A stretch of 64,000 bases of DNA from Chloroflexota bacterium. GTDB taxonomy: Bacteria; Chloroflexota; Dehalococcoidia; Bin125. The position numbers and the translations under genes were made by a program. Under the pieces are notes generated by a model. That model saw only the letters and a list, made by a program, of their open reading frames with translations, did not search any database and was not told where the DNA came from. Below, in pieces: positions 859 through 63,921 of this stretch. The first letter of the stretch is position 1. Every line of letters starts with the position of its first letter. The stretch spans positions 74,060 to 138,059 of the forward strand of contig JAPPBN010000046.1 of NCBI GenBank assembly GCA_026705025.1, in the 5' to 3' direction.

Positions 859-2367
859 ATGACCACCTCCCGCGCGTTTGGCAAGACGCCCGCGCCCGAC
901 GTTCCAGCTGGGATGACCTGGCTAAACACCGGACGCGAAATGTCGATGGGCGACTTCAACGGCCGCCTGCTGATCCTGCACTTCTGGACCTACGCTTGAA
1001 TCAACTGTCTGCACGTGCTTCCGCAGTTGCGGAAGCTTGAACGCCGCTACGCCGACACGCTGCAGATCGTCTCGGTCCATTCGCCCAAGTTCCCGACCGA
1101 GCGCGAGACCGAAAATCTGCGCCAGGCGATCCTGCGTCTGCGAATTGAGCACCCGGTGCTCAATGACGCCGATTTCAAGTATTGGCAGACCTTCGGCGCG
1201 CGGGCCTGGCCGACGCTCTACTTCATCGACCCACGCGGCAATGTGATCGGCATTCACGAGGGCGAGCTGACGGAAGACATGGCTGCCCCCCTAATCGAAG
1301 GTTGGCTGGTCGAGTACGAAGCCGAACAGATTCTGACGCGTAAAGACCTCGGACTGGTCCGCGAAACCGGCCGGGACAGCGCCCTCTCCTTCCCCGGTAA
1401 GGTCGCCTGGGACGACGCCTCTGGACGGCTGGTCGTCTCCGACAGCAACAACGACCGGATCATCGTGGCCGACATCGAGGGCAACGTGTCTCAGATGATC
1501 GGCGGCTCGGAAGCGGGCTTCACGGACGGTTCGGCCTCAGAGGCTCGGTTCAATCAGCCTCAGGGCGTCGAGGTATTCGGCGACCACGTCTTCGTCGCCG
1601 ACAACGAGAACCACGCCCTGCGCCGGATCGATCTGCGCGACGGCAGTGTCACCACGATTGCCGGCACCGGTGAGCAGGCGCGGATGATGCCCTCGGGCGA
1701 GCCCGCGACCCGAACGGCGCTCAGTTCTCCCTGGGATGTGGCCGTCCACGAGGGAGACCTGTACATCGCAATGGCCGGCATCCACCAAATTTGGCGGATG
1801 CCGCTCGGCGATCAGGTCGGCGACGCCTCCTATATCGGTCCCTGGGGAGGCTCGGGTCGCGAGGGAATCGTCGACGGGCCGCGAATGCAGTCGGAGCTGG
1901 CCCAGGTATCCGGTCTGGCGCCCGGACCTTCCGGTCTTGCCTTCGCCGATTCCGAATCAAGCGGCGTGCGAGAGATCAGCTGGGATCCTGACGGCCGAAC
2001 GACGACCTTCATCGGCAAGACCGGCCAGGGCGGACTCTTCCATTTCGGCGACGCCGACGGCGGTCGCTCGGTGGCGAGGCTGCAGCATCCGCTCGATGTG
2101 GCCCGCGTGGGCGATGAGCTCTACGTGGCGGACACGTTCAACCACAAGATCAAGCAAGTGTTCCCACTGACCGAGAACGTCAACACGCTCGTCGGCGGGC
2201 ACGGAGCCGCACTAGGCAGCTTCAGCGAGTTGGAACTCGACGAGCCCGGCGGATTGACCACCGGTCCCGGCCGCTCCCTGCTGGTAGCCGACACCAACAA
2301 CCACCGGATCGTGCACCTGGACCTGGAATCCCGCCAGGGCAGGGAGATCGTGCTGAAGTTTCCCTAA
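859..2367 (+). CDS. Thioredoxin-fold (TlpA/ResA-like) + NHL-repeat protein, NHLRC2 homolog; in-frame TGA at 997..999 proposed to encode selenocysteine (UxxC redox motif)
   Basis: ATG 859 with GGAGAG 10 nt upstream. Frame 859 is continuous with ORF 1015..2367 except for one TGA (997-999). Translation reads ...GRLLILHFWTYA-U-INCLHVLPQL...HSPKFP...NDADFKYW...WPTLYFIDPRGN..., i.e. TGA replaces the first Cys of the CxxC motif. Downstream are NHL-repeat blocks (FPGKV..., FNQPQGV..VADNENH, SSPWDV...IAMAGIHQIW, VADSESS, LQHPLDV, YVADTFNHKIK, LLVADTNNHRIV). Confidence 0.7.
1017..1036 (+). promoter_or_regulatory. Candidate bacterial SECIS hairpin (GCUUCCGC-AGUU-GCGGAAGC) 18 nt downstream of the in-frame UGA
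   Basis: Perfect 8-bp stem with 4-nt apical loop containing G-U; loop starts 25 nt after the UGA, within the range of known bacterial SECIS elements. Confidence 0.5.
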
Positions 2368-3599: not shown

Positions 3600-4366
3600 C
3601 AGTGAGCGCCCCAGCTGGGCGCGCGTTTCTCACGGAAGGCTTGCGGGCCCTCTTTGGCGTCGGCGGTTTCTCGGGCGACGCGGCGCATCGTTTCGCCAAA
3701 ACGGATCGCCTGCACGAAGGGCAACTCCTGGCCTCGGTGGGCGACTTCTTTGGTTGCGCGAACCGCGAGCGGCGCGCCCTTGCACAGGCGCTCGGCGAGG
3801 TTGCGGGCGGCGGGCAACAGATCGTCGTGCGGCACGATCTCCCAGACCAGACCCATCTCCTTGGCCCGCCACGCGTCGACGCGGTCGCCAATCAGCAGGA
3901 GTTCCATCGCATGATGCCAGGCGACCCGTTTGGGCATGCGGATCGCTCCCTGGATCGTGGGCACGCCGATTTGCACCTCGGGGAAGCCGAACTGGGCGCG
4001 GTCGGATGCGATGACGAAATCGCAGGCGGCGACCATGGTCAGGCCGAATCCGAGGGCGTATCCGTTGACCGCTGCGATCGTCGGTTTCCAGACTTCCATA
4101 CCCGATTCGAGTGAGGTCAACGAGGGCACCTCCCAGAAGGTGTGTTCCTCCGGCGGCGCCGGAGATCGCAAGTCGGCGCCGGCCGAAAACGCGCGGCCCG
4201 CGCCGGTGACGATCCCAACCCAGGCCTCGTCGTCGTTGCGGAACGACTCCCAGGCGGCATTGAGATCGGAACGCAACTCATGGTTGATCGCGTTCAGAGC
4301 CTCGGGCCGGTTGTAGGTGATCGTGCCAATTCGGCCGCTGCGCTCGTAGGTGACGGTGTCGCCCAT
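3599..4366 (-). CDS. Enoyl-CoA hydratase/isomerase (crotonase) family protein
   Basis: Internal ATG at 4366 preceded by GGAGG. Crotonase signatures are present (ALNAIN, AVNGYALGFG, oxyanion-hole region). Confidence 0.8.
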   Translation of the reverse strand: MGDTVTYERSGRIGTITYNRPEALNAINHELRSDLNAAWESFRNDDEAWVGIVTGAGRAFSAGADLRSPAPPEEHTFWEVPSLTSLESGMEVWKPTIAAVNGYALGFGLTMVAACDFVIASDRAQFGFPEVQIGVPTIQGAIRMPKRVAWHHAMELLLIGDRVDAWRAKEMGLVWEIVPHDDLLPAARNLAERLCKGAPLAVRATKEVAHRGQELPFVQAIRFGETMRRVARETADAKEGPQAFREKRAPSWGAH

Positions 4367-4440
4367 CTGGTGCCTCCAGGGATTCCTTCGCGGTTCACAC
4401 TTGCCGAACAGCTTATTCGTGCAATACGACGAGCTGAGAA

Positions 4441-5574
4441 TCAATCGAACGGATTGAGCTCTTCATGCAAGATCGCCAGGTAGTTTCGGTACACAAACAA
4501 CCGGTTTCGCCGTCTTCCTGTGATCTCCTCAACGATGCCGAGTTCGGCGAGATGCTGGACTGCGGATGAAGCGGTCGACAGTGATAATTGCGCTTGAGCG
4601 CCGACAGAGGCGATAGATCGCAGCGGACGCTGCATGAACTCGTGATGCGCACGAAGAGCCGAGCCGGCCTTTCTTCCGGATTCCTCGATCTGACGCCGAT
4701 CCGTCGCGAAGCATTCATTGAGCCGCTTGGCAGTTTTCACGCCATGGCGAGCTGTCTGTACCACGCCCTCGAGAAAGAACGAGAGCCAGGTCTCCCAATC
4801 GCCGTCGCTTCTGGTTCGATTCAGCAGTTCGTAGTACTCAGAACGGAACTGCTTGAGATACAGACTCAGATAGAGAATCGGCTCAGAGAGCATGCCGGAT
4901 TGCATCAGAATGAACGGAATCAGCATTCTCCCGACACGTCCATTGCCATCGAGGAATGGATGGATTGTCTCGAATTGGGCATGAGCGAGACCGGCGCGAA
5001 CGATCGCAGGCAGGCCGTCCTCCCTGGTATGAATGAATTGCTCCAGGCTTGCCATGCAATCTTCGACTTCCTGGTGCGGAGGCGGAACATAGACCGCGGC
5101 CGAAGGACGCCTTCCGCCTATCCAGTTCTGAGATCTGCGGAACTGACCCGGCTGCTTTTCGGCACCTCGGCCACTGTTGAGCAGCAATCGATGAAGTTCA
5201 CGGATCAGGCGATTGCTCAACGGAAACTGGTCGGCACGCATGCGTTCCAGACCATGGTTCAGCGCAGCGACGTAGTTCGACACTTCTTCGACGTCGTCTG
5301 TTGGCGCTCCTGGAGCCCCTTCGAGTTCGTATTCGAGTAAGTCGGATAGCGATGATTGAGTTCCCTCGATCTCAGAGGAGAGCTGTGCCTCACGCCGAAC
5401 GTAGGAGTAGATGAACAGGTCGGGATCAGGTAGGTGTGTAGTAATCGCATCGAGTGATCCGAGCGCCGCGGAGGCTTGCTCGATGGACTGAGAGAGATCT
5501 GTCAAGTCCAGACTGGGCACAGGAGGCATGGGTGAGGGGACAAACGCACGGACGGTCTCGTCCCCGTAGTTCAT
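4441..5574 (-). CDS. Fic family protein (class II: Fic_N with inhibitory SxxxEG motif, FIC motif HPFLDGNGRVGR, C-terminal wHTH)
   Basis: Canonical HxFx(D/E)GNGRxxR motif; SSEIEG inhibitory helix motif N-terminal to it; likely start MNYGDE at 5574. Confidence 0.8.
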   Translation of the reverse strand: MNYGDETVRAFVPSPMPPVPSLDLTDLSQSIEQASAALGSLDAITTHLPDPDLFIYSYVRREAQLSSEIEGTQSSLSDLLEYELEGAPGAPTDDVEEVSNYVAALNHGLERMRADQFPLSNRLIRELHRLLLNSGRGAEKQPGQFRRSQNWIGGRRPSAAVYVPPPHQEVEDCMASLEQFIHTREDGLPAIVRAGLAHAQFETIHPFLDGNGRVGRMLIPFILMQSGMLSEPILYLSLYLKQFRSEYYELLNRTRSDGDWETWLSFFLEGVVQTARHGVKTAKRLNECFATDRRQIEESGRKAGSALRAHHEFMQRPLRSIASVGAQAQLSLSTASSAVQHLAELGIVEEITGRRRNRLFVYRNYLAILHEELNPFD

Positions 5575-5692
5575 CGTCTCAAATCGTCCCGTTCGCTCGC
5601 GTCTCACTTTGTTCTCCGGGTCTGTGTTCAGATCTGTGGGCCTGGACCCGTTCTCTTTGTTACGACTTTGGGCACGAAATCAGGATACGCGC

Positions 5693-5906
5693 CTTCAGCT
5701 ATTCCAGAAGTCCGGATAAGGCCGAGCGCTATTCTGATTAAGGCCATCAAGTCGGAATAACCCCCTAAGCTATTCCAGAAGTCGGGATAAGGCCGAACAC
5801 TATTCCGATTTAGGCCTTGAAGTTGGAATAACACCTTCAGCTATTCCAGAAGTCGGGATAAGGCCGAGCGCTATTCTGATTTAGGCCCTGAAGCTGGAAT
5901 AAGCTG
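5693..5906. repeat. Three tandem copies of a ~71-bp unit (cttcagctattccagaagtcGggataaggccgaRcRctattcYgatttaggcc..ggaataa) with internal dyad symmetry
   Basis: Direct comparison of the units starting at 5693, ~5764 and 5835 shows >85% identity between copies. The repeat lies in the intergenic region between Fic (5574) and the LLM oxidoreductase (5928). Confidence 0.75.
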
Positions 5907-5927
5907 TTCAAGTCTATCGTGCGCCTG

Positions 5928-6812
5928 TCACCCGCTCTGCAGACCCTGTAGATGCTTCCCCGCGAATTCGGCGAGCACGGCCTCGGCGTCGGCGGCGGGA
6001 TGCAGGTTGGCGATCGCCTGGTCGAAGCCTCTGGATTTCATCTCGTTGAGCGTCTCGGCCGCTTCGTCGATCGTGTCCTCGGCGAGCACCGTGATCCGGT
6101 TGATCATGAGCTGCATACCCGAGGAATCGCGGCCGTGCGACTCGGCCTCGGATTTGACCAGCGCCCAGTCGTCCTCAAGCGTGTCGAGCATCGCCGGGTT
6201 GGCCAGGTAGCCGTCGGCGAAGCGGCCGGCGCGGCGCAGCTGGCGGGGATTGTTGCCGCCCAGCAGGATCGGCACGCGGCGCGGCGGTTGGGGTCGGCAG
6301 TACCAGCCCTTGGTGTTGTAAAACTCGCCCTCGAACGAGCCGATCTCGTTCTCCCAGAGGTCGCGCAGGACCTGCAGGTACTCGTCCATCCGCGCGCCGC
6401 GGCGGTCGAACGGCATCGACAGCGCTTCGAACTCCTCTTTCCACCAGCCGACGCCGGCGCCGAGGATCAGCCGTCCGCCGGCCAGGTGGTCGAGCGTGGC
6501 CATCAGTTTGGCGTGCAGTACAGGCGCGCGCATCGGCGCGACCAGGACGGCGGTGCCCAGCTCGACCCGTTCGGTCACGGCGGCGGCGAAGGTCATCAGG
6601 GTGAGCGGTTCGAGAAAGGGCGCCTCGGCCGGGACCAGGAAGCGACCGTCCTCGGAGTAGGGGTAGTCGGAACCCTGATCCGGGCGCAGCACGACGTGGT
6701 CGAAGGTCCAGAGCGAGTCGTAGCCGTTGGCTTCGACCGCGGTCGCCACTCGCTTGATGTTCTCCGGGCTGGCGACGCCGCCGACCTGTGGCAAGTAGAT
6801 GCCGACCTTCAT
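5928..6812 (-). CDS. LLM-class F420-dependent oxidoreductase (luciferase-like monooxygenase family)
   Basis: Start MKVGIYLPQ at 6812 with GGGAGG RBS; TIM-barrel LLM motifs are present; family typical of F420-utilising organisms. Confidence 0.7.
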   Translation of the reverse strand: MKVGIYLPQVGGVASPENIKRVATAVEANGYDSLWTFDHVVLRPDQGSDYPYSEDGRFLVPAEAPFLEPLTLMTFAAAVTERVELGTAVLVAPMRAPVLHAKLMATLDHLAGGRLILGAGVGWWKEEFEALSMPFDRRGARMDEYLQVLRDLWENEIGSFEGEFYNTKGWYCRPQPPRRVPILLGGNNPRQLRRAGRFADGYLANPAMLDTLEDDWALVKSEAESHGRDSSGMQLMINRITVLAEDTIDEAAETLNEMKSRGFDQAIANLHPAADAEAVLAEFAGKHLQGLQSG

Positions 6813-10770: not shown

Positions 10771-11215
10771 GGAACCGGCTGTCGGTGAGGCATGCCGCCG
10801 CTCGTTGGAAGTGATAAGCTCAAATGTTCGCATTGTATTCGGAATCGGGCCAATGGACCCGAGGACCGGAGATCATCGGGGTTGACCGGTGGGTAGAGGC
10901 GGCGAGCGGATCCCGGCGTGAAGCGGAGACGGGCCGATCGCTCACTGAAGACGTCCTCGCCGTCCTCCACGCGACGCCTGCGGCATCCGCTTAGCGGCAC
11001 TCTTCCCATAGGCGGTAGGGGAGTTCTCCGGTGTCTGCGCTGGCGCAGTTGCGGGAGCCGTCGTCGCAGATGGGGACTCCGCCAGACCCCGGACGATCGT
11101 TCGCCCTGCCCGGGCAACGGTGCCGTTGAACATGTCACAACTCTCCGGGAATCGGCGTACATTGAAATCAGGCAGGCGCTTGTTTCGGGAGTGGCCCGGG
11201 CTCGGAGGTATCGAC

Positions 11216-11899: not shown

Positions 11900-12934
11900 T
11901 CACTGTTCGCAGACGAGTCCGTCGCCGTCTCCATCTCGAGCTGAGGGCACCGTTTGTCTGGGGAACCCCTGGCCGGTTCCCTTCGAGCCCTGCTGTCGTT
12001 CAACGCCCGCTGCCTCGGCCTCGTCGCAGGAGGCGTAGGGACCAGATGGCTGCTCTGCGGCGTCCGGGCGCTGTTGATCGTTCTGCTCGCGCTGGACGTG
12101 GATCACGGTCGGCTGTCGCTCCGGGTACTCGGCCCGGCGCTGGTAGCTGGCGGGGCAGGTCTGGAGCATGTCACGTAGAGCGACGACCTCTTGCCGGTCG
12201 GCGGTGAGCGACCACTTGACCTTGACGGCGATCCAGTCGTGCGCGTACTGGCACCAGGCGCTCCTGAGCGGAGGCTTCCAGTCGGCGGGATCGTCAGCTC
12301 GCTTGGTTCGGTTGCTTGAGGCTGAGACTGCCGTGAGCGCTGCGGGGAGATCGAGGTCGTTGGCGAAGGCCGACTTGCGCTCGGCCGGCCAGGCGGCGGC
12401 ACCGGAGTCGTGCGCTTCAGCGAGCGGGACCATGTGGTCGATGTCCAGTAGTGAAGGGTCGTCGAACGGATCGTCGTCGTACCAGGAATGCCAGAGGCCG
12501 TCCAACGGACGACAGTCCTGGTTGACCTCAGTGATGGTGATTGCTTCGGCGATCAGCACGAGTTCGCGGACGTTACAGGCCGGTCGATCGGTCTCCAGCC
12601 ATCCGTCGGGCATGTACAGCTCGCGGTCGTAGTTGATCCCTGAATCCGATTCAGGAGCCACCGTGAGCTGGGCGAGCAACGCTTCGTACCGATCCTGTGG
12701 CTCCTGTCGTGGCTCCGATTGAGGTTGGGCGTCAGGTTGCTCCGGAACGGTCTGCTGGACGGGCTGCGCTTCGCCTACGCCCTGCTGCGGCTCGGGCGCG
12801 GCTGTCTGGCCAGCGGACTGATCGGACTGACTCTGCGGTTCGATCGCGCAGGCCGACAGCGCGAGGCCGGTGAGCAGGAAGCAGACGGCGAGCGCACGGA
12901 CGATTCGGAGCCTCATGGTGTTCTTCAGCAGCAT
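11900..12934 (-). CDS. Secreted lipoprotein with DUF1524 (HNH/GmrSD-C-like nuclease) domain and C-terminal Excalibur calcium-binding domain
   Basis: Signal peptide plus lipobox (LTGLALSAC). [16 protein letters not shown]...W...NDLDLPAA...NRTK matches the DUF1524 His-Me finger. C-terminal CDEAEAAGV...[10 protein letters not shown] is an Excalibur motif. Confidence 0.65.
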
Positions 12935-13019
12935 GCCTCGGGTTTGGGAAGACGAACCATAGCAGCGAGCGGACGTCGTATCCCTCTATCCTGATTCGGA
13001 AGCCGAGAGGACGAGTGTC

Positions 13020-14156
13020 ATGGTCAGCGAGATTGTCTACTCCTGCGATTCCCACGTGGTTGAGGGTCCGGAGGTCTTTGACGGATTGGTAGAAAAATTC
13101 GGCGATCGCGCGCCGCGCGTGGTCGACGGCTGGAAGGGCCGCCAGGGGGTGTACCTGGCCTGGCCGCAGATTGACTTCGCCATGCTGGTCGGTCGCCTGG
13201 GGATCGCCGGGGCGAACCTGAACCTGCCCGAAACCAAGGAGAAGATGCAACGCGGCTGGGACCTAATCAATCCCGGGGTCAAGGATCCGGTTGCTCGGCT
13301 GACGGAGCAGGACACCGACGGCGTGGTCGGCGAGGTGATGTATCCGTCGATCAACATGCTGACCTACATGGTCGATGACGTGGAGGTGGTGAACGCCGTC
13401 TTCCAGCGTCACAACGACTGGATCCGCGACTACTGCTCGCACAGCCCCGAGCGGCTGATCGGCGTCGGTTGTCTGACGCTGCGCGACGTTGAGGTCGGGA
13501 TCGCCGAGCTTGAGCGCTGCGCCAACATGGGGATCAAGGGCGTGGCGATTCCCTGTACCGCGCCCAAGGACAAGCCGTACTCGGACGCCTACTACGAGCC
13601 GTTCTGGACGGCGGCCGAGGAAGCCGGACTGCCGCTGACGATGCACATTTTCTGCGGCGCGGAGCCGGGGATGGGATTGCCCAAGGAGTGGGACGAGGTC
13701 GTGAGCTACACGCTGGCGCATTCGGCCGCCTGGAACACGATCTCCAACCTCGTTACCTCAGGGGTTTGCGAGCGGCACCCAGGTCTGAAGTTCGTGATGG
13801 CCGAGTGGGAGACGGGCTGGATCGCGCACACGCTGGAGCGCTGGGACCACGCCTACTACCGCGCCCGCGCGGTCGACCGGACGCCCGAGTTGGAGATGCT
13901 GCCTTCGGAATACTTCCACCGCAACTTCATGGTCACGTTTGAGGACGACGAGATCGGCGTGCAAACGCGCGACCGCATTGGCGTGGACAACCTGCTCTGG
14001 GGCAACGACTATCCGCATCACGACGCGATCTGGCCGAACTCGCGCCGGATCCTGGACGAGATCATGGAAGGCGTCCCGCAAGAGGACGTCGACAAGATGG
14101 TCTGGGGCAACGTGCAGAAGTTGTACAACATCGACGTGAAGGCGCTGCCCGTGTAG
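13020..14156 (+). CDS. Amidohydrolase-2 family protein (ACMSD-like metal-dependent hydrolase)
   Basis: SCDSHV N-terminal metal ligands and WGNDYPHHD near the C-terminus are typical of PF04909. Confidence 0.75.
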   Translation: MVSEIVYSCDSHVVEGPEVFDGLVEKFGDRAPRVVDGWKGRQGVYLAWPQIDFAMLVGRLGIAGANLNLPETKEKMQRGWDLINPGVKDPVARLTEQDTDGVVGEVMYPSINMLTYMVDDVEVVNAVFQRHNDWIRDYCSHSPERLIGVGCLTLRDVEVGIAELERCANMGIKGVAIPCTAPKDKPYSDAYYEPFWTAAEEAGLPLTMHIFCGAEPGMGLPKEWDEVVSYTLAHSAAWNTISNLVTSGVCERHPGLKFVMAEWETGWIAHTLERWDHAYYRARAVDRTPELEMLPSEYFHRNFMVTFEDDEIGVQTRDRIGVDNLLWGNDYPHHDAIWPNSRRILDEIMEGVPQEDVDKMVWGNVQKLYNIDVKALPV

Positions 14157-14166
14157 GGACATGCTC

Positions 14167-14197
14167 TTGTTATCGGATTGACAGTATCCGATAACAA
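14167..14197. promoter_or_regulatory. Perfect 12-bp inverted repeat TTGTTATCGGAT-N7-ATCCGATAACAA (operator-like / hairpin)
   Basis: Read directly. It lies 11 nt after the stop of the 13020..14156 gene and 100 nt upstream of the Fic gene at 14300. Confidence 0.5.
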
Positions 14198-14237
14198 ACT
14201 GACAGTTGGGCCAATTCGAGCTCTCTCCGACTTTCGA

Positions 14238-14280
14238 ATCGGATTACTATCGGATCAAGAGTTTCCGATAGTAATCCGAT
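14238..14280. promoter_or_regulatory. Perfect 17-bp inverted repeat ATCGGATTACTATCGGA-N9-TCCGATAGTAATCCGAT (operator-like), shares ATCGGA core with the 14167 palindrome
   Basis: Read directly; it lies 20 nt upstream of the Fic start at 14300. Confidence 0.55.
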
Positions 14281-14299
14281 AGCTCGTTTCGAGGGAACA

Positions 14300-15637
14300 A
14301 TGGCACTTCCGGATGTCGCTCCGCCGTTCAGCGCTTTGCAGGTCGACTTCGAGGTGCTCAGTTTCGAGGAACGGGCCCAGTTTCAGGGGACGCTCACCCC
14401 GGTCGACGCACAGGGTCGCTACCTACCGTGGGACGAAGTCCGCTATCGAAAGGCGCCGAACGGGCTGACGCGCCGGCAATGGTGGCTGAGCCTGGCGACC
14501 GCCCGCCGAGCAGCCCGGAACGAACTGCCCCTACTTGGACGCGGTGGCCAAGCCTTCTGGTTCTGCGAAACCGGCCCGCTTCCCGGATTCCTCAAGCGTT
14601 GGGATGCGGCGGTCTCTTCGCATAACGTCCATCGCGATCTGGGCCTACAGGATGCCGAGCGGAACCAGCTTCGGGTTAGTTCGCAGATGTATGAGTCGAT
14701 TCAATCCAGTCGCCTTGAGGGAGCGAACACGACACGAGAGGTCGCACTGGAGATGCTGAGGGACGGACGACGCCCGCGGGACTACGGCGAGCGCATGATC
14801 GCCAACAACTATGCCGCGATGGAGTTGATCAGCAAATGGACAACTGAACAGGAACCGTTCGACATCGATCACATCCTCGAGGTCCACCGTGTCGTGACCG
14901 ACGGCACCCTTCGAGCCGACGATGTTGGGCGCTTGCAGAATCCAGGGGACCCGCGCGTGTATGTGGTCAGCCGCGGTGGGGAGATCGTCCATACGCCGCC
15001 TCCGGCTTCCGAATTGCCGGAGCGGATGCAGCGGCTCTGCGACTTCGAGAATCAACTGCCTGAGGCAAGCGACCTGCACCACCTGCTGAAGGCGATTCTT
15101 GTGCATTTCATGATCGGCTACGACCATCCGTTTGCCGACGGCAACGGACGTACCGCTCGTGCGCTGTTCTACTGGTCGCTGCTTCGTTCTGGAATCTGGC
15201 TTTCCCAATACCTGCCGATTTCGGAGTTCCTCCTCGCGGCGCCGGGGCAATACTCGCGGGCGTACCAATTCGTTCATGCCGACGGCAACGACGTGACTCA
15301 CTTCTTGCTGCACCAGCTTGATGTCGTCGAGCGATCAGTTGAACGGCTCGACAGCCACGTGCGAGGCATCCGCTCCTGGATGGAGGACGCGAGAGAGGCC
15401 ACTGGCCTTGAGTCGGGACTGAACCAGCGCCAATCCGACCTGCTGGCGGAACTGCTGAACGATCCGACGCGATACATCACTATCGCCCGCTACCGGCGGA
15501 CGAATGATGTGAGCTATGCCGTCTCTCACGGAGATCTGGCCGATTTGGTGAAACGAGGGCTGTTAGAACGGGAGCGGGTCGGCAGACGGCTTCAGTTTCG
15601 AGCCGCGCCGGGCTTCCAGGAGAGATTGGGCGGGTAG
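14300..15637 (+). CDS. Fic family protein (class II: SSRLEG inhibitory motif, FIC motif HPFADGNGRTAR, C-terminal wHTH)
   Basis: Canonical FIC motif with an upstream SxxxEG motif; ~150-aa N-terminal extension; C-terminal RYRRTNDVSYAVSHGDLADLVKRGLL resembles a winged helix. Confidence 0.8.
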   Translation: MALPDVAPPFSALQVDFEVLSFEERAQFQGTLTPVDAQGRYLPWDEVRYRKAPNGLTRRQWWLSLATARRAARNELPLLGRGGQAFWFCETGPLPGFLKRWDAAVSSHNVHRDLGLQDAERNQLRVSSQMYESIQSSRLEGANTTREVALEMLRDGRRPRDYGERMIANNYAAMELISKWTTEQEPFDIDHILEVHRVVTDGTLRADDVGRLQNPGDPRVYVVSRGGEIVHTPPPASELPERMQRLCDFENQLPEASDLHHLLKAILVHFMIGYDHPFADGNGRTARALFYWSLLRSGIWLSQYLPISEFLLAAPGQYSRAYQFVHADGNDVTHFLLHQLDVVERSVERLDSHVRGIRSWMEDAREATGLESGLNQRQSDLLAELLNDPTRYITIARYRRTNDVSYAVSHGDLADLVKRGLLERERVGRRLQFRAAPGFQERLGG

Positions 15638-15661
15638 TCTGCAGGGGTACAGGAGTGAGCG

Positions 15662-16576
15662 ATGGCGTCGCGTCGTGAGCAAGCTGGACTACCCAAAGGC
15701 GCCGAAATGCGTGCGCTGGTGCTCGACTGCCTCAGACACATGGTTAATCCTGTGAATCGGAAGCAGATCGGCGACGCGGTTGCGCAACGGCTCGGTTTGT
15801 CACCAGAGCAACTGGCGGTGCGAGAACCTGCGAGCGGAGGCGGCGATAGCTCTCGTCCATTCGTTGATTGGTGGTGCGAGTGGGCGTGTAACGACCTCAA
15901 GCACATTGGTGTCACGGAACAACCCGGGCGTGGCCTGTATCAGCTGACCCAAGAGGGCAGGGCTATCTCGCTCAATGACGTTGAGCAGCGGAATCGCGAA
16001 CGCCATCGACGCTATCGAGAACAACGCCAACGGACCCGCCGAGCCAAAGTCCAGGAACCGAGCGACGCGATAGACAGCGACGACTCAGAAGTCGCAGGTG
16101 ATTGGCAAAGCCAACTTCTCGACCGGCTCATGAACGCTTCGCCTACAGCGTTCGAACATCTTGCCGGCGCCCTGCTGCAAGCAGCGGGTTTCGACGACGT
16201 AGAAGTTACGGGTCGGGGTGGCGATGGTGGAATTGACGGCATTGGAACGTACCGACCCTCAGGCTTGATTTCGTTTCACACAGCGTTTCAGTGCAAGCGA
16301 TACAAAGGGTCCGTGGGGTCGTCCACAGTCCGAGACTTCCGAGGATCGTTCATCGGGCGCTCAGACCGCGGAATCATCATTACAACGGGATCCTTCACGC
16401 GTGACGCTAGGGACGAAGCTGCCAGACCGGGCGCAAATCCCGTTGACCTGATTGATGGCGAAGCGCTCTGCGAACTGCTCAAGGAGCATTCCTTGGGTGT
16501 TCGCACGACGCTACGAACTGTTGAAGATGTCGCCATTGACGACTCCTACTTCGACCAATTCGAGGACTCCCGATGA
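15662..16576 (+). CDS. mrr: Mrr-like restriction system protein (Mrr_N winged helix + Mrr_cat nuclease domain)
   Basis: The N-terminus matches the E. coli Mrr N-terminal domain (LxxL...PxxRKQIxDAV...LGLS); the core has TGRGGDGGIDGIG...FQCKRY (PD-(D/E)xK Mrr_cat). An alternative start is at 15707. Confidence 0.75.
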   Translation: MASRREQAGLPKGAEMRALVLDCLRHMVNPVNRKQIGDAVAQRLGLSPEQLAVREPASGGGDSSRPFVDWWCEWACNDLKHIGVTEQPGRGLYQLTQEGRAISLNDVEQRNRERHRRYREQRQRTRRAKVQEPSDAIDSDDSEVAGDWQSQLLDRLMNASPTAFEHLAGALLQAAGFDDVEVTGRGGDGGIDGIGTYRPSGLISFHTAFQCKRYKGSVGSSTVRDFRGSFIGRSDRGIIITTGSFTRDARDEAARPGANPVDLIDGEALCELLKEHSLGVRTTLRTVEDVAIDDSYFDQFEDSR

Positions 16577-17340
16577 GCAACATGCGATCTGTCCTGGTTG
16601 ATGTTCTGGTTGCGTTGCTGATCATGATCTTTGGCGGGATCATCTTTGCCCGGCTTGCGGGGGTGGAGGAGGGGGAGACGGCTCCGGATTGGGCTCAGTT
16701 TGCTCCGCTGGTTCTGGCGATGATTTATCTGGGCTGGCGGACGCTTCGGCGCAGCCGACAGCGGCGCGAAGCCGAAGCCCGGATGGAGGAATCCGCCCCG
16801 GAGCGCGATGGTTGGGGCGATGAGGGCCGCGCGGACGTTCCGCCGATGGACGACTACGAGTGGCGTTCGCGGTTGGAGTCTTCGATACGCAACCTGGGGC
16901 GCGACGCATTTGAGCAGTTCACGATTCGGATCCTCAGCGCGCTGGCGGTGGTGGACGTCAAGGTCGAACGGATTGCCTTCGACGGGGCCGTCGAGAGTCT
17001 TGGCGTCCATGACGACGAGGAGCGGGCGAGCGTATACGCCATCTTCCGCCGCTCGTTTGGCTCGCTGGGAGCGAATCAGATTCGGGATCTTCGGGCGTCG
17101 ATGGAGGGCAAGGCGGCTGAGGGTCTGTTCGTCTCGAATGGCGAGTTTTCTTCGTCGGCCATCGACGAAGCGGACGGTGGGGAACCACCGATTGAGCTGG
17201 TCGACGGGGACGACTTGCTGGACCTGATGTACACGAATCGGCTGGGCTTGATTTTCGACGAGATCGGACGCGTCACAGGAGTCGACGATGAGTGGTTCCG
17301 CGGTCTCGCCCGCGACGAACGAGTCCGGGACGGAGACTGA
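16573..17340 (+). CDS. Membrane-anchored restriction-endonuclease-domain (Mrr_cat-like) protein
   Basis: Two N-terminal TM helices, then a region resembling the PF04471 restriction endonuclease fold (AIFRR...LFVSNGEFSSSAIDEA...IELVDGDDLLDLM). The start overlaps the mrr stop by 4 nt. Confidence 0.5.
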   Translation: MSNMRSVLVDVLVALLIMIFGGIIFARLAGVEEGETAPDWAQFAPLVLAMIYLGWRTLRRSRQRREAEARMEESAPERDGWGDEGRADVPPMDDYEWRSRLESSIRNLGRDAFEQFTIRILSALAVVDVKVERIAFDGAVESLGVHDDEERASVYAIFRRSFGSLGANQIRDLRASMEGKAAEGLFVSNGEFSSSAIDEADGGEPPIELVDGDDLLDLMYTNRLGLIFDEIGRVTGVDDEWFRGLARDERVRDGD

Positions 17341-17342
17341 GG

Positions 17343-18458
17343 ATGAGCACTTCAGCTGACGCGCAACCGACGGTCGGCGTGCTGCCGGGGGACGACGCGG
17401 CGCCCGAGGCGGTGCATGCCTCGCTGGCGGTGCTGCAGGCGATGGAGTTGCCGATCGCGTTCGAGGTCCTGCCCGACGGCGCGGAGATGGCTCGGGAGAT
17501 GTCGCGCGAAGAGGGCGAGCAGCTGGTGATCGACACTGCCGAGCGCTGCGACACGGTGCTGTTCGGCTCGACCAATGGCCAGACGCCGGGCGTCGGCTAT
17601 TTCCGCTGGGGGCGCCAAACATACGCGAACGTGCGGCCGATCAAGTGGCGGCCCGGCTTCCGCTCGCCGATGGCCCGGCCGGAGGGCATCAACTACGTCA
17701 TCGTGCGCGAGAACCTGGAGGACCTGTACGCCGGAATTGAGGGTGATCTGTCGGAGGTCGCCGCTTCGGGTCTGGCCGACCGTCCGCGGTTCGGCGGCGT
17801 CTCGCGCACCCAGATTCCAGGGGGATTCGGCCACTTTGCCGAGGCCGACGGACGCTATGCGATCAAGTACTTCACCCGTGCCAACGTCGAGCGCGTGGCG
17901 CATTTCGCCTGCCGGCTGACGCAACAGCGCAAGGCGGAGGGGTTTGAGGGCAAGCTGACCTGCTCGGCCAAGTACAACGTGTTGTCGCGGACCGACGGCT
18001 GGTTCGTCGAGATCGCGGCCGAGGTCGCGTCGGGCTATCCCGATATCACCTTTGAGTCCTTCATCGCCGACGATTTCGCCCGTCGGATCGTGGCCTCGCC
18101 GCACGATCTTGATGTGGTGCTGCTGCCCAATCTGTACGGCGACATCTTCTCGGACGAGGGCGCGGGCACGATCGGCGGCCTGGGACTGGCGCCGTCGGGT
18201 TGTTTCGGGGAGGACTGGGCCTACTTCGAGTCGGTCCACGGGACCGCGCCGGACATCGCCGGGATGCACCAGATCAATCCGACGGCGACGATGCTCTCGG
18301 CCGTGATGATGCTGCACCATCTCGGTCAGCACGAGCGGGCGTCGGCGTTGGAGTCGGCGATTGACGCGGTCTACGAGGCCGGGGAGCGGCTGACGCCGGA
18401 CCAGGGCGGTTCGGCAAGCACCGAGGAGTTCGCGCAGGCTGTGATCGACGCGCTGTAG
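17343..18458 (+). CDS. Isocitrate/isopropylmalate dehydrogenase family protein (tartrate/3-isopropylmalate dehydrogenase-like)
   Basis: NLYGDIFSDEGAGTIGGLGLAPSG and YESVHGTAPDIAG motifs; probable start ATG 17343 (MSTSADAQPTVGVLPGDD). Confidence 0.8.
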   Translation: MSTSADAQPTVGVLPGDDAAPEAVHASLAVLQAMELPIAFEVLPDGAEMAREMSREEGEQLVIDTAERCDTVLFGSTNGQTPGVGYFRWGRQTYANVRPIKWRPGFRSPMARPEGINYVIVRENLEDLYAGIEGDLSEVAASGLADRPRFGGVSRTQIPGGFGHFAEADGRYAIKYFTRANVERVAHFACRLTQQRKAEGFEGKLTCSAKYNVLSRTDGWFVEIAAEVASGYPDITFESFIADDFARRIVASPHDLDVVLLPNLYGDIFSDEGAGTIGGLGLAPSGCFGEDWAYFESVHGTAPDIAGMHQINPTATMLSAVMMLHHLGQHERASALESAIDAVYEAGERLTPDQGGSASTEEFAQAVIDAL

Positions 18459-18476: not shown

Positions 18477-18574
18477 TGGCGGGAGCGCATGGGAGTCGAA
18501 CCCACCCGAGACGGTGCGGACCGCCCCGCATCAGTTTTGAAGACTGTGGAAGACACCGGTCCCCTTCCGCTCCC
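18477..18574 (-). tRNA. selC: tRNA-Sec (selC), anticodon UCA
   Basis: The reverse complement gives GGGAGCGGAAGGGGACCGGUGUCUUCCACAGUCUUCAAAACUGAUGCGGGGCGGUCCGCACCGUCUCGGGUGGGUUCGACUCCCAUGCGCUCCCGCCA (98 nt). It has a 7/8-bp acceptor stem, a 6-bp D-stem with a 4-nt D-loop, the anticodon loop CUUCAAA (UCA), a long variable arm, a T-loop UUCGACU identical to E. coli selC, discriminator G and an encoded CCA. Confidence 0.8.
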
Positions 18575-18596: not shown

Positions 18597-19286
18597 CTAG
18601 CCCACGTAGAGGTCGATTGAGGCGGGGGCGATGGTGGACTCGAGGGCGGTGCGGAACTCGGCCCAGCGATCGTCGTAGTTGGAGCGGCGGAAGTTGGCGT
18701 GCAGGCTGGCGGTTCCGGCGTTCTGGGTGGATGAAGCGATCTTGAAGCCGCGCAGGTTAGTCCGTAGGAAGCTCAATAACTCTGCCTCGTGTTGGGTGTA
18801 GTCGGCCGAGGGCATGGTGATGATCAGGTCTCGGCTGCCCGCGGTCAGGCCTCTGAGGCCGGTCGAGCCGAAGATGCGCTGGCCGACCAGGACCAGTGCG
18901 ACGGCGGCGAAGAGGATGCCGATCAGCTCGTAGTTGTAGGTCGCGGCGCCGATTGACGAGGCGATGACCACCAGGAGGTAGCCGATTTCCGCCGGGTCCT
19001 TGATCGGCGTGCGGAAGCGGACAAACGAGAGCGCGCCGAGCAGGCCGAGCGAGAGCGGCAGCGACCATTGGATGGCGATGAAGAGCAGCGTGATCGCTGG
19101 TCCGGCGAGCAGGAAGACTCGGTGGATGCCGGCCCCGCGCTGCCAGTCGCGATAGAAGATGAGATAGAGCACATAGATCGCGATCGACGCGGCCAGCGAG
19201 ACGACCATCGCGAGCAGGTACTCCTCGAGCGCGATTTCCGAGGTCGGGCCGAGAATGTCGGGCCACTCGATCATGACAATGGGCAT
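18597..19286 (-). CDS. DUF4956 domain membrane protein
   Basis: Four N-terminal TM helices plus a C-terminal soluble region; sits in the typical position next to a VTC-domain gene. Confidence 0.55.
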   Translation of the reverse strand: MPIVMIEWPDILGPTSEIALEEYLLAMVVSLAASIAIYVLYLIFYRDWQRGAGIHRVFLLAGPAITLLFIAIQWSLPLSLGLLGALSFVRFRTPIKDPAEIGYLLVVIASSIGAATYNYELIGILFAAVALVLVGQRIFGSTGLRGLTAGSRDLIITMPSADYTQHEAELLSFLRTNLRGFKIASSTQNAGTASLHANFRRSNYDDRWAEFRTALESTIAPASIDLYVG

Positions 19287-19322
19287 CGGCTCCTCCAGGT
19301 GTGTCCAGGTGCGCGGGGCTGT

Positions 19323-20057
19323 TCAGCCGGCGCGGGCGGATTCGCCGCCGTAGAGCGTCTCGACGGCGAGCGCGTACTTCGAGTGGGCGGTGCGGCGGAG
19401 GCCGAGGCGTCCGAGGTGGGCAAGTTGCGTCGGCAGATCGCCGGTTGACTTGAGTTCGAGGACAGAGCCATTGGGAACGGGCAACCAGACCGGGGCTCCT
19501 CGCGGGTTTGACGTGCGGACGTCGGTGTCCAGTGATGCGCGGACTGAACCATCGGCGGATTGCCAGCGAATTCGTTGGTAGCGAATCAGGGCGGTGGGTA
19601 TGACTGTCGGCTCGAGGGGCAACGTGGCGACGCCGGTCAGGTCACGAAGGCGTCGTACGAGCTCGTCGCGCTCGGGGATGATCAGCCCGAGCTGATTGGG
19701 CACTCCGGTCGAGGGATAGCGAACGCGCTGCTTGGTTGAGCGAGCGCCGTCGCGCGACTTGAGTTCGAGCCAGACGCCGGCGTACGGGTCGACGGGATCG
19801 CCATACCAGCGCAGGCGCAGCTTCTGTTTGGCGAACTCGCCGTCGGCCGATTCCTGGTAGGAGTCGAGCTCGGGCGTGTCGTAGTAGCAGCTGGTAATGA
19901 CGCCGAGCGGATACTGGGAGTCGCGGGGCAGGCGGGCGTCGAGCCAGGCGGTCAACAGCGCGGCGCGGGCTGCCGGCAGCGGATACTTGCGTTCCTCCCG
20001 CGAATCCGCTTTCGTTATCTGGTTCCGAGTGTCCGGGCGACGTAAGGTGAGCGCCAT
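19323..20057 (-). CDS. VTC-domain (polyphosphate polymerase / CYTH-like domain) protein
   Basis: 244 aa with conserved basic/acidic blocks (RLRWYG...WLELKSR...LELKSTG) typical of bacterial VTC-domain proteins found adjacent to DUF4956 and CotH genes. Confidence 0.6.
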   Translation of the reverse strand: MALTLRRPDTRNQITKADSREERKYPLPAARAALLTAWLDARLPRDSQYPLGVITSCYYDTPELDSYQESADGEFAKQKLRLRWYGDPVDPYAGVWLELKSRDGARSTKQRVRYPSTGVPNQLGLIIPERDELVRRLRDLTGVATLPLEPTVIPTALIRYQRIRWQSADGSVRASLDTDVRTSNPRGAPVWLPVPNGSVLELKSTGDLPTQLAHLGRLGLRRTAHSKYALAVETLYGGESARAG

Positions 20058-20108
20058 GCCGATATGCTATCCCGTCGTTGACGCGGCTCAAGAGGCCCCG
20101 GAGGCGCG

Positions 20109-21509
20109 ATGAACAAGCGGTCGGCGCTGGCGCTTGTCCTGGCGGTCGCGGTGATCGTTGCCGGCGTGGTCATTGCGACCACCGGTGACGCCTCGGCTCC
20201 GCGGGTGCCGTCGAGGGCGGCGGAGACCACGATTGGCGTCGATCAACAGCGCAGCGATCCGTTCAACATCGTCTTTGACCTGAACACGGTTCGGGTCTAC
20301 GACATCCAGCTCGGCGAAGCCGAGCAGGCCAAGCTGGACGCCAACCCGACCGCTGAGCAGTACGTCGAGGGCGCGGTGGTCATCGACGGCAAGCGCTACG
20401 GGCCGATCGGCGTGCGGTACAAGGGTTTCTTCGGGGTGCTGCGGCAGTGCTTCTTCACCGGCGTGAACACCTGCGACAAGCTGGCCTGGAAGCTGAAGTT
20501 CAACCACTATGAGCCGTCGCTGCGCTATCACGGTCTGAAGCGGCTCAACTTCCACCAGATGAACAGCGACGAAGCGCAGATGCGCGAGGTGTTGACCTAC
20601 CAGGTCTTCCGCGACGCCGGCGTGCCTGCGCCGCGCTCGGTCTTCGCGCTATTGCGCCTCAACGGCGAGCCGCTGGGCTTCTACACGCTGACGGAGGATA
20701 TCGACGATCGCTTCATTGCCGATCGTTTCCGCGACGGTGGGCGCGGCGTGCTCTACAAGGAGATCTGGCCGGGCAACATCGAGCGGCTGCCGGCCTTCAG
20801 CGAGACCATCGAGGGGGCGATCGCGCGCGGCCCCGAGGATCCGTCGGGCCTGCGCGAGTTCTCGGCAGCGCTGACCGAAGCGGAGCAGTCGGATGATTCA
20901 GCCGCGAGGGTATTCGTCGTGCTGGAGGACTACATCCAGGATCTGGATGCGCTCTACGGCTACTTGGCAGCGGATCGGCTGACCGACAACTGGGACGGGA
21001 TCGTGGCCTGGTACTGCGTGCCGGTCTGCGGCAATCACAACTTTTTCTGGTACGAGGATGCGCTTTCTGGTGAGTTCAGCCTGATTCCCTGGGACGTTGA
21101 GAACAGCTGGCGCTCGCCCAGCCCGATCCGGACGTACTACGAGATGCCCGACTGGGATGAAACGGAACGCAGTTGCCGGTTGCGCAAGGTGTTCTGGGAC
21201 ATCGATGCGCGAGCGCCTCACTGCAACCCCGTGATCCACGCGCTGGCGACGCAGGGCTGGGAACGATACATCGAGGCGTCGCGCGAGCTGATGGAACACG
21301 TTGTCACGCTGGACGAGATGCACGCCAGGGTCGATGCGATCACCGAACTGATTGAGCCGCACGTGCTGGCCGACGAGAACGGTCCAGGCGAGATCCAGTG
21401 GCGAGCGGCGGTGCGGCTGCTGCATGACGAGATCGACGACCGCTGGCGGTACATTGCCGACAAGATTGCGGCCTGGGACGCGACGGGAGAGGTTCCGGGA
21501 GATGGCTGA
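20109..21509 (+). CDS. CotH kinase family protein (secreted)
   Basis: N-terminal signal/TM; the size and motif spacing of spore-coat-protein-H-like atypical kinases; conserved VTC-DUF4956-CotH neighbourhood. Confidence 0.6.
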   Translation: MNKRSALALVLAVAVIVAGVVIATTGDASAPRVPSRAAETTIGVDQQRSDPFNIVFDLNTVRVYDIQLGEAEQAKLDANPTAEQYVEGAVVIDGKRYGPIGVRYKGFFGVLRQCFFTGVNTCDKLAWKLKFNHYEPSLRYHGLKRLNFHQMNSDEAQMREVLTYQVFRDAGVPAPRSVFALLRLNGEPLGFYTLTEDIDDRFIADRFRDGGRGVLYKEIWPGNIERLPAFSETIEGAIARGPEDPSGLREFSAALTEAEQSDDSAARVFVVLEDYIQDLDALYGYLAADRLTDNWDGIVAWYCVPVCGNHNFFWYEDALSGEFSLIPWDVENSWRSPSPIRTYYEMPDWDETERSCRLRKVFWDIDARAPHCNPVIHALATQGWERYIEASRELMEHVVTLDEMHARVDAITELIEPHVLADENGPGEIQWRAAVRLLHDEIDDRWRYIADKIAAWDATGEVPGDG

Positions 21510-63846: not shown

Positions 63847-63921
63847 GCGGGAGTAGCTCAGTGGTAGAGCATCTGCTTCCCAAGCAGAGGGTCGCGGGTT
63901 CGAATCCCGTCTCCCGCTCCA
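63847..63921 (+). tRNA. tRNA-Gly (anticodon CCC)
   Basis: GCGGGAGUAGCUCAGUGGUAGAGCAUCUGCUUCCCAAGCAGAGGGUCGCGGGUUCGAAUCCCGUCUCCCGCUCCA: a 7-bp acceptor stem, anticodon loop UUCCCAA, T-loop UUCGAAU, discriminator U and encoded CCA. Confidence 0.85.

Follow-up and report, generated by a model that had tools for sequence, protein, structure and literature searches.

The selC gene of E. coli is unlinked from selAB and from selD, and pathogenicity islands and prophages insert at selC in Enterobacteria. In Dehalogenimonas alkenigignens, a cultured member of the Dehalococcoidia, selC and the selB/selA/selD cluster also carry well-separated locus tags (PMC4918011). In the E. coli tRNA-Sec, SelB recognition and EF-Tu rejection both reside in the pairs 7:66, 49:65, and 50:64 (PMC9976931), and the importance of G73 has been described (PMC5330540). 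The crystal structure of the tRNA-Sec from Aquifex aeolicus contains a bulged U43a in the 6-bp anticodon stem, and bulges at the 43a site are frequent in bacterial tRNA-Sec (PMC3711452).

Here, we analysed a 64,000-nucleotide stretch of DNA (referred to as the window) from an uncultured Dehalococcoidia/Chloroflexota bacterium, in which a gene at 18477–18574 on the minus strand is a standard bacterial tRNA-Sec. The element is readily recognised by routine tools and is already known; identical copies of it are present in public MAG records. We estimate, with a probability of about 0.9, that it is the single functional selC gene of this bacterium and that it serves the decoding of selenocysteine (Sec) at the UGA codon at position 997 of the window.

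The tRNA-Sec gene and its cloverleaf

ARAGORN found two tRNA genes in the window, and called the one at 18477–18574 (minus strand, 98 nt) as tRNA-SeC with the anticodon tca. The Rfam tRNA-Sec model RF01852 matched 18481–18574 on the same strand over its full length (model positions 1–91), with 68.2 bits (E = 8.3e-12) compared to a gathering score of 47 bits. The two methods agree with the initial annotation, which had proposed a 98-nt minus-strand tRNA-Sec; the covariance-model score exceeds the threshold, and every feature that had been listed for the tRNA is present. The features of the gene are as follows.

18477–18574, minus strand: tRNA-Sec (selC) gene, 98 nt, 8/5 cloverleaf with encoded CCA (ARAGORN; RF01852, 68.2 against 47 bits; covariation among 17 distinct sequences from 44 genomes).
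18567–18574, minus strand: acceptor 5' strand GGGAGCGG, the last G of which (18567) lies opposite G18488 as the G-G layer 7:66 (sequence; layer unpaired in 17 of the 17 distinct sequences).
18549–18564, minus strand: D-arm with a 6-bp stem and the 4-nt loop CGGU (100% of the cells paired; columns 15:22 changed from A-U to C-G in 6 sequences).
18529–18548, minus strand: anticodon arm with 6 bp, in which A18531 (tRNA position 44, corresponding to 43a) is bulged (bulge model).
18538–18540, minus strand: anticodon UCA, tRNA positions 35–37, in the 7-nt loop CUUCAAA (ARAGORN; sequence; Rfam).
18507–18528, minus strand: long extra (variable) arm with an 8-bp stem and a 6-nt loop (all cells paired; columns 49:66 changed from G-U to G-C or A-U).
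18489–18505, minus strand: T-arm with the 5-bp stem GUGGG/CCCAU and the loop UUCGACU (G-U changed to G-C in the related locus L040).
18477–18488, minus strand: acceptor 3' strand GCGCUCCC, discriminator G73 (18480), and CCA (18477–18479) (sequence).

The full tRNA reads GGGAGCGG AA GGGGAC CGGU GUCUUC CACAGU CUUCAAA ACUGAUG CGGGGCGG UCCGCA CCGUCUCG G GUGGG UUCGACU CCCAU GCGCUCCC G CCA. The acceptor stem is formed by GGGAGCGG/GCGCUCCC with G-G as layer 8, and the acceptor/T branch comprises 13 layers (8+5), 12 of which are standard pairs. The D-stem, GGGGAC/GUCUUC as read from the sequence, contains two G-U pairs among its 6 bp, and the extra arm is CGGGGCGG-UCCGCA-CCGUCUCG. Both of the SerRS identity elements, the long extra arm and G73, are present.

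The unconstrained minimum-energy fold of the tRNA is not the cloverleaf (−45.7 versus −40.7 kcal/mol). Non-cloverleaf minimum-energy folds are common among tRNA sequences. Since the unconstrained fold misses the cloverleaf, the structure is argued below from covariation instead.

An ordinary tRNA-Gly(CCC) gene is also present in the window, at 63847–63921 on the plus strand (Rfam tRNA, 75.5 bits).

Conservation of the tRNA and its structure among relatives

When the protein of the IDH-family gene beside the tRNA was used to search one genome per species, 43 loci were obtained (81–98% identity), all of which are labelled as Dehalococcoidia or Chloroflexota MAGs. In all 43, a tRNA-SeC(UCA) gene lies just downstream of the IDH-family gene in the convergent orientation. 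No comparable tRNA was seen in six more distant loci, five at 53–67% identity and one at 82%. Several of the isolate labels (RHO, IRC, and SB) hint at marine sponge hosts, and our literature search yielded no account of Sec use in sponge Chloroflexota. Exact matches of window proteins were present on metagenome contigs, for example on the 393-kb contig ENA ERZ27276914 k141_40916 and in the MAGs GCA_028875585.1 and GCA_026705165.1.

The 44 tRNA copies, those of the 43 relatives and that of the window, fall into 17 distinct sequences, and this comparative set is provided here. The mean column identity of the tRNA is 94%, and in a wider alignment both flanks diverge right at the tRNA ends. The UCA anticodon is invariant in the 44 genomes. 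For the 17 distinct sequences, 91.4% of the cells of the 8/5 cloverleaf hold standard pairs, compared to 49–64% when the partners were slid by 1–3 columns. Three pairs have changed on both sides, namely a D-stem A-U to C-G (6 sequences), an anticodon-stem C-G to U-A (3 sequences), and an anticodon-stem A-U to G-C (6 sequences). In addition, several G-U pairs have become G-C or A-U, and no Watson-Crick pair is broken in any of the 17 sequences.

Two details of the cloverleaf were settled by the same comparison. For the T-stem, the first pair, G-U in 16 sequences, is G-C in the one from L040, which supports the 5-bp T-stem and disfavours a 9/4 alternative. The 9/4 reading, which requires a pair between A9 and U, was rejected, because L040 has that U replaced by C and yet keeps the T-stem pair intact. 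For the anticodon stem, a 4-bp version with two mismatches (C-U and A-A) was replaced by a 6-bp stem with one bulge. In this bulge model, C27-G46 is paired in 17 of 17 sequences and A28-U45 is paired in the window copy, and the proportion of paired cells rises from 91.4% to 95.5%.

The last base of the anticodon loop (tRNA position 39, window position 18536; standard position 38) is A in the window (CUUCAAA) and C (CUUCAAC) in 6 of the 17 distinct sequences, which are carried by 21 of the 43 relatives. It is the sole variable loop position beside the anticodon.

Gene neighbourhood and the question of integration

The genes next to the tRNA are as follows.

11900–17340: defence-type cluster with GmrSD_C, Fic (14300–15637), Mrr_N+Mrr_cat (15662–16576), and Mrr_cat (16573–17340).
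17343–18458, plus strand: convergent IDH/IPMDH-family gene (Pfam Iso_dh, 3e-69; paired with selC in 43 of 43 relatives).
18597–19286, minus strand: DUF4956 gene (Pfam; gene called in public contigs).
19323–20057, minus strand: VTC gene (Pfam; gene called in public contigs).

The IDH-family gene scores under every NCBIfam equivalog cut-off, and "IDH/IPMDH family" is therefore the right level at which to name it. It ends at 18458, and the nearest Mrr-type gene ends at 17340; the convergent placement 18 nt from the tRNA 3' end and the distance of about 1.1 kb to the accessory block, both given in the initial annotation, are thus correct. On the other side, the stop codon of the DUF4956 gene and the tRNA 5' end are 22 nt apart on the same strand. 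The gene order across the clade is Ldh_2, GmrSD_C, Amidohydro_2, Fic, Mrr, Mrr_cat, IDH, selC, DUF4956, VTC, CotH, Amidohydro_3, and CoA-transferase. The DUF4956, VTC-domain, and CotH-kinase genes (18597–21509) stand as a trio beside selC in every relative with enough sequence, and their grouping is suggestive of a polyphosphate-related function.

tRNA genes had been pointed out as integration hotspots, and the tRNA might have served as the attachment site for a mobile island whose integration delivered the Fic-Mrr block. The G+C content of the block, about 0.60 compared to about 0.65, is in line with such an origin, as are the patchiness of the Fic and Mrr genes, which are missing from some genomes, and their divergence among relatives, in which they are 30–80% identical whereas their neighbours are about 90% identical. 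The flanks of the tRNA also vary, with DUF4268, GmrSD, and GIY-YIG genes located there in relatives. However, no integrase is present among the neighbouring genes of the tRNA, and a search of the window that allowed up to 3 mismatches gave no second copy of any tRNA segment. When the 43 related loci were scanned with 16-mers, 41 likewise showed no second tRNA copy; the extra single 16-mer matches in L014 and L016 are presumed to be due to chance. Moreover, the tRNA and the block are separated by the conserved IDH gene, and the block holds the same slot throughout the clade, with the Fic and Mrr genes behind the IDH gene in most relatives. In the strict sense, the hotspot idea finds no support at this tRNA, given that there is neither an integrase nor a tRNA-derived direct repeat and that the Fic-Mrr slot is fixed in most relatives. 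An island attached at the tRNA is therefore very unlikely, and the Fic-Mrr block looks like an old, fast-turning defence-type islet rather than one recently inserted at the tRNA.

The spacers that directly flank the tRNA differ in length among the relatives, from 3 to 1578 nt on the 3' side and from 12 to 2093 nt on the 5' side, and the window represents the compact form, in which they measure 18 and 22 nt. The larger spacers carry single genes, which encode DUF4268, a GmrSD-type enzyme, a GIY-YIG nuclease, a DUF1828 protein, or a NUDIX hydrolase. A DUF4268 gene (~320 aa) lies between the tRNA-Sec and the DUF4956 gene in 12 loci (L009, L015, L017, L027, L031, L033, L038, L042, L043, L045, L048, and L070), among which L038, the closest relative, carries this insert. 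The GmrSD-type enzyme that is wedged against the tRNA has 513 aa, and further loci with extra genes against the tRNA are L044 (11116–12695) and L013 (11615–12358). These extra genes come without an integrase or repeats, and all are absent from the window.

Other variations were seen in the spacer between the IDH-family gene and the tRNA-Sec. In L025, a tRNA-Leu(CAG) gene (11125–11204) is placed between the two. Spacers of 500–800 nt (L011, 3988–4723; L012/L014/L016; L020/L047) belong to two sequence families and contain internally repeated segments and no convincing ORF; the L011 spacer gave no Tandem Repeats Finder hit. Elsewhere in the window, a second Fic-family gene (Fic_N + Fic) at 4441–5607 on the minus strand is located in the stretch with the lowest G+C content (0.56–0.58 at 4001–6000), and it is also present in L258 and L084–L087.

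The G-G layer at 7:66

The G-G at 7:66 is invariant in all 44 genomes. For comparison, bacterial selC genes were gathered by a loose pattern from viral or prophage contigs (L208–L256) and from metagenome contigs (L262–L381), and the metagenome set was filtered for seven clean acceptor pairs, a clean T-stem, and G73, which left 58 genes. On the viral or prophage contigs, 7 of the approximately 25 well-formed genes have G-G or G-A at 7:66. On the metagenome contigs, 7:66 is standard in 20 of the 58 genes and non-standard in 38, fractions that are rough because the sample was shaped by the search pattern. The 38 non-standard layers consist of G-G (10), G-A (7), A-A (7), C-U (5), C-A (5), A-C (2), and U-C (2), and three of the 58 genes have exactly the acceptor stem of the window. 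In this pattern-selected sample, the layer adjoining the T-stem seems to be rarely Watson-Crick outside the E. coli type.

Since many other tRNA-Sec genes have non-standard 7:66 layers, the G-G represents a common natural state rather than a sign of decay, and it need not flag a pseudogene. The initial annotation had reported a G-G at the eighth acceptor pair and counted it as a mismatch; the G-G is indeed there, and it is no weakness, given its invariance in the 44 genomes and the 38 of 58 non-standard layers elsewhere. The layer is most readily regarded as a normal variant of the box formed by the three pairs 7:66, 49:65, and 50:64, and, by analogy with E. coli, a non-standard 7:66 may here serve SelB acceptance and EF-Tu rejection. 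A broader proposal would be that a non-standard, often purine-purine 7:66 is the usual natural state of bacterial tRNA-Sec and this lineage's way to reject EF-Tu and to fit SelB, and that the selC locus in the Dehalococcoidia clade is a fixed anchor for the integrase-free swapping of small nuclease or defence genes. We put this joint proposal forward as a speculation that is rather unlikely to hold in full.

A UGA-containing redox gene as the probable user of the tRNA

A gene that would use the tRNA is located near the start of the window, with the following features.

859–2367, plus strand: thioredoxin-like and NHL-repeat selenoprotein gene with the Sec codon UGA at 997–999 in the motif WTYA-U-INC (frame; domains; homologue alignment).
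1017–1036, plus strand: candidate SECIS hairpin GCUUCCGC-AGUU-GCGGAAGC, 17 nt after the UGA (kept in the orthologues L257, L258, and L259).

The frame from the ATG at 859 to 2367 is open except for the UGA at 997, around which it reads ...LILHFWTYA-UGA-INCLHVLPQLRKLE..., and its product has thioredoxin-like and NHL-repeat domains. A homologue database search was performed with Cys in place of the UGA. The 82 closest homologues (55–98% identity, 422–462 aa) span about 86–90% of the query and all lack the N-terminus, because they are annotated from the Met just after the UGA. More distant homologues (44–49% identity) span 94–100% of the query. The distant full-length homologues read DFWTY(C/G)-C-INC, so that UGA 997 matches the position of the first Cys in the CxxC motif (CINC).

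The UGA and the hairpin are kept at the DNA level in three orthologues (L257, L258, and L259; 57–83% identity). In L259, one U-A pair of the hairpin is changed to G-C on both sides, a change that also converts Lys to Arg. The hairpin is no more stable than shuffled sequence in its 71-nt G+C-rich context (z = −0.01), and no Rfam SECIS family matched around 997, where the sole match was at chance level (E = 1.7). Consequently, the SECIS role of the hairpin is argued from its position, its conservation, and the one compensated pair. A scan of the window for other in-frame UGA codons with coding signal on both sides returned only gene ends.

The UGA at 997 had already been proposed as a read-through codon, and the alignment with the first Cys of CxxC and the retention of the UGA and the hairpin in orthologues bear out its role as a Sec codon. 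Together with the tRNA-Sec call, this evidence supports the Sec-decoding trait that had been ascribed to the organism: the tRNA gene shows that an uncultured Dehalococcoidia/Chloroflexota clade decodes UGA as selenocysteine. As a consequence of this decoding, genes such as that at 859–2367 are wrongly split in public records, here by public gene calls into 46 aa and 450 aa at UGA 997, and the UxxC redox active site is missed. The importance of these results is mostly one of annotation hygiene.

The sel genes and the state of the tRNA

Scans with Pfam and NCBIfam revealed no SelA, SelB-specific, or SelD domains in the approximately 55 ORFs of the window, which include every ORF long enough for a sel gene, and no selA, selB, or selD was present in about 8 kb beyond either window end (about 80 kb in all). 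Two ORFs of 466 and 577 aa just beyond the tRNA, considered as selA and selB candidates, encode CotH and an amidohydrolase, and the gene of ~320 aa beside the tRNA in 12 relatives, a selD candidate by its size, encodes the DUF4268 protein. The absence of adjacent selA, selB, and selD, as claimed in the initial annotation, is thus upheld by the domain scans, whereas its description as unusual is not, because selC also lies apart from the sel genes in E. coli and D. alkenigignens. From the conservation of the tRNA and the UGA gene, we infer that selA, selB, and selD lie elsewhere in the genome.

The lack of sel genes within about 80 kb and the non-standard pair in the acceptor stem could also be explained if the tRNA-Sec were a relic, left in a lineage that has lost Sec decoding and no longer used. 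A relic would decay, whereas the 44 genomes keep the tRNA with only structure-compatible changes; the redox gene with the UGA has been retained together with it in orthologues of 57–98% identity, and the G-G layer is common in other tRNA-Sec genes. A relic is even less likely than an island at the tRNA. Least likely of all is an allo-tRNA or opal suppressor that puts Ser or Cys at UGA via EF-Tu, since the 12 standard acceptor/T pairs resemble the 12-bp allo-tRNAs (PMC5389517) and the 7/5 forms (PMC5330540) only superficially, whereas the 8 nt between the T-stem and G73 and the 5-bp T-stem make 13 layers rather than 8/4, 9/3, or 7/5, the anticodon is UCA in all 44 genomes, and the one UGA target that was found, a UxxC redox site with a hairpin behind it, presents the classical Sec context.

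A model for Sec decoding at UGA 997

For a single functional selC that serves UGA 997, the reading that we favour, the following steps would be expected from the established knowledge of bacterial Sec. Seryl-tRNA synthetase would charge the tRNA with serine via G73 and the long extra arm, and SelA would turn the Ser-tRNA into Sec-tRNA with selenophosphate from SelD. SelB, and not EF-Tu, would then bring the Sec-tRNA to a UGA with an mRNA hairpin behind it. At UGA 997, Sec would replace the first Cys of the CxxC redox motif in the thioredoxin-like/NHL gene.

As for the supply of the tRNA, a scan within 2 kb of it detected neither a sigma-70-like promoter nor an intrinsic terminator. Given this result and the 22-nt same-strand gap, co-transcription with the VTC and DUF4956 genes would be the simplest reading, and the tRNA probably rides on the VTC-DUF4956 transcript, from which it would be cut out by RNase P.

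Comparison with known systems

The locus shares with the enterobacterial selC insertion site a tRNA-adjacent gene content that varies among relatives, and the pattern search recovered many selC copies on viral or prophage contigs. In contrast to the enterobacterial site, the present locus has no integrase and no duplicated tRNA 3' end, and its inserts, which lie on both sides of the tRNA, each consist of one small gene.

The allo-tRNAs of the 8/4 and 9/3 types (PMC5389517), which are found in the same kinds of searches, resemble the present tRNA in their long extra arm and unusual acceptor/T branch. The present tRNA differs from them in its T-stem of 5 bp rather than 3–4 bp, in its fixed UCA anticodon, and in its Rfam tRNA-Sec score well above the threshold. 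The 12-bp (7/5) tRNA-Sec forms, which include that of Dehalogenimonas lykanthroporepellens (PMC5330540), also occur in Dehalococcoidia and likewise have only 12 standard acceptor/T pairs. Unlike these 7/5 forms, the present tRNA has 8 acceptor layers and keeps all 13 layers of the branch, with a purine-purine layer in place of the loss of one.

The comparison with E. coli was made through the E. coli-type selC copies of the comparison sample. With E. coli selC, the present gene shares the 8/5 branch, the 6-bp D-stem with the loop CGGU, the anticodon loop CUUCAAA, the T-loop UUCGACU, G49-U65 at the top of the T-stem, G73, and the encoded CCA. In contrast, 7:66 is C-G in E. coli and G-G here, and 50:64 is C-G in E. 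coli and U-A here; the present tRNA is also longer (98 versus 95 nt), as is its extra arm, and its anticodon stem carries a bulge.

Compared at the level of secondary structure with the tRNA-Sec of A. aeolicus (PMC3711452), the present tRNA differs in having no bulge in the D-stem, an extra stem of 8 bp instead of 9 bp, and G-G at 7:66. Conversely, the two share the 8-bp acceptor, the 5-bp T-stem, the 6-bp D-stem with a 4-nt loop, the 6-bp anticodon stem bulged at 43a, and the long extra stem followed by a single linker G.
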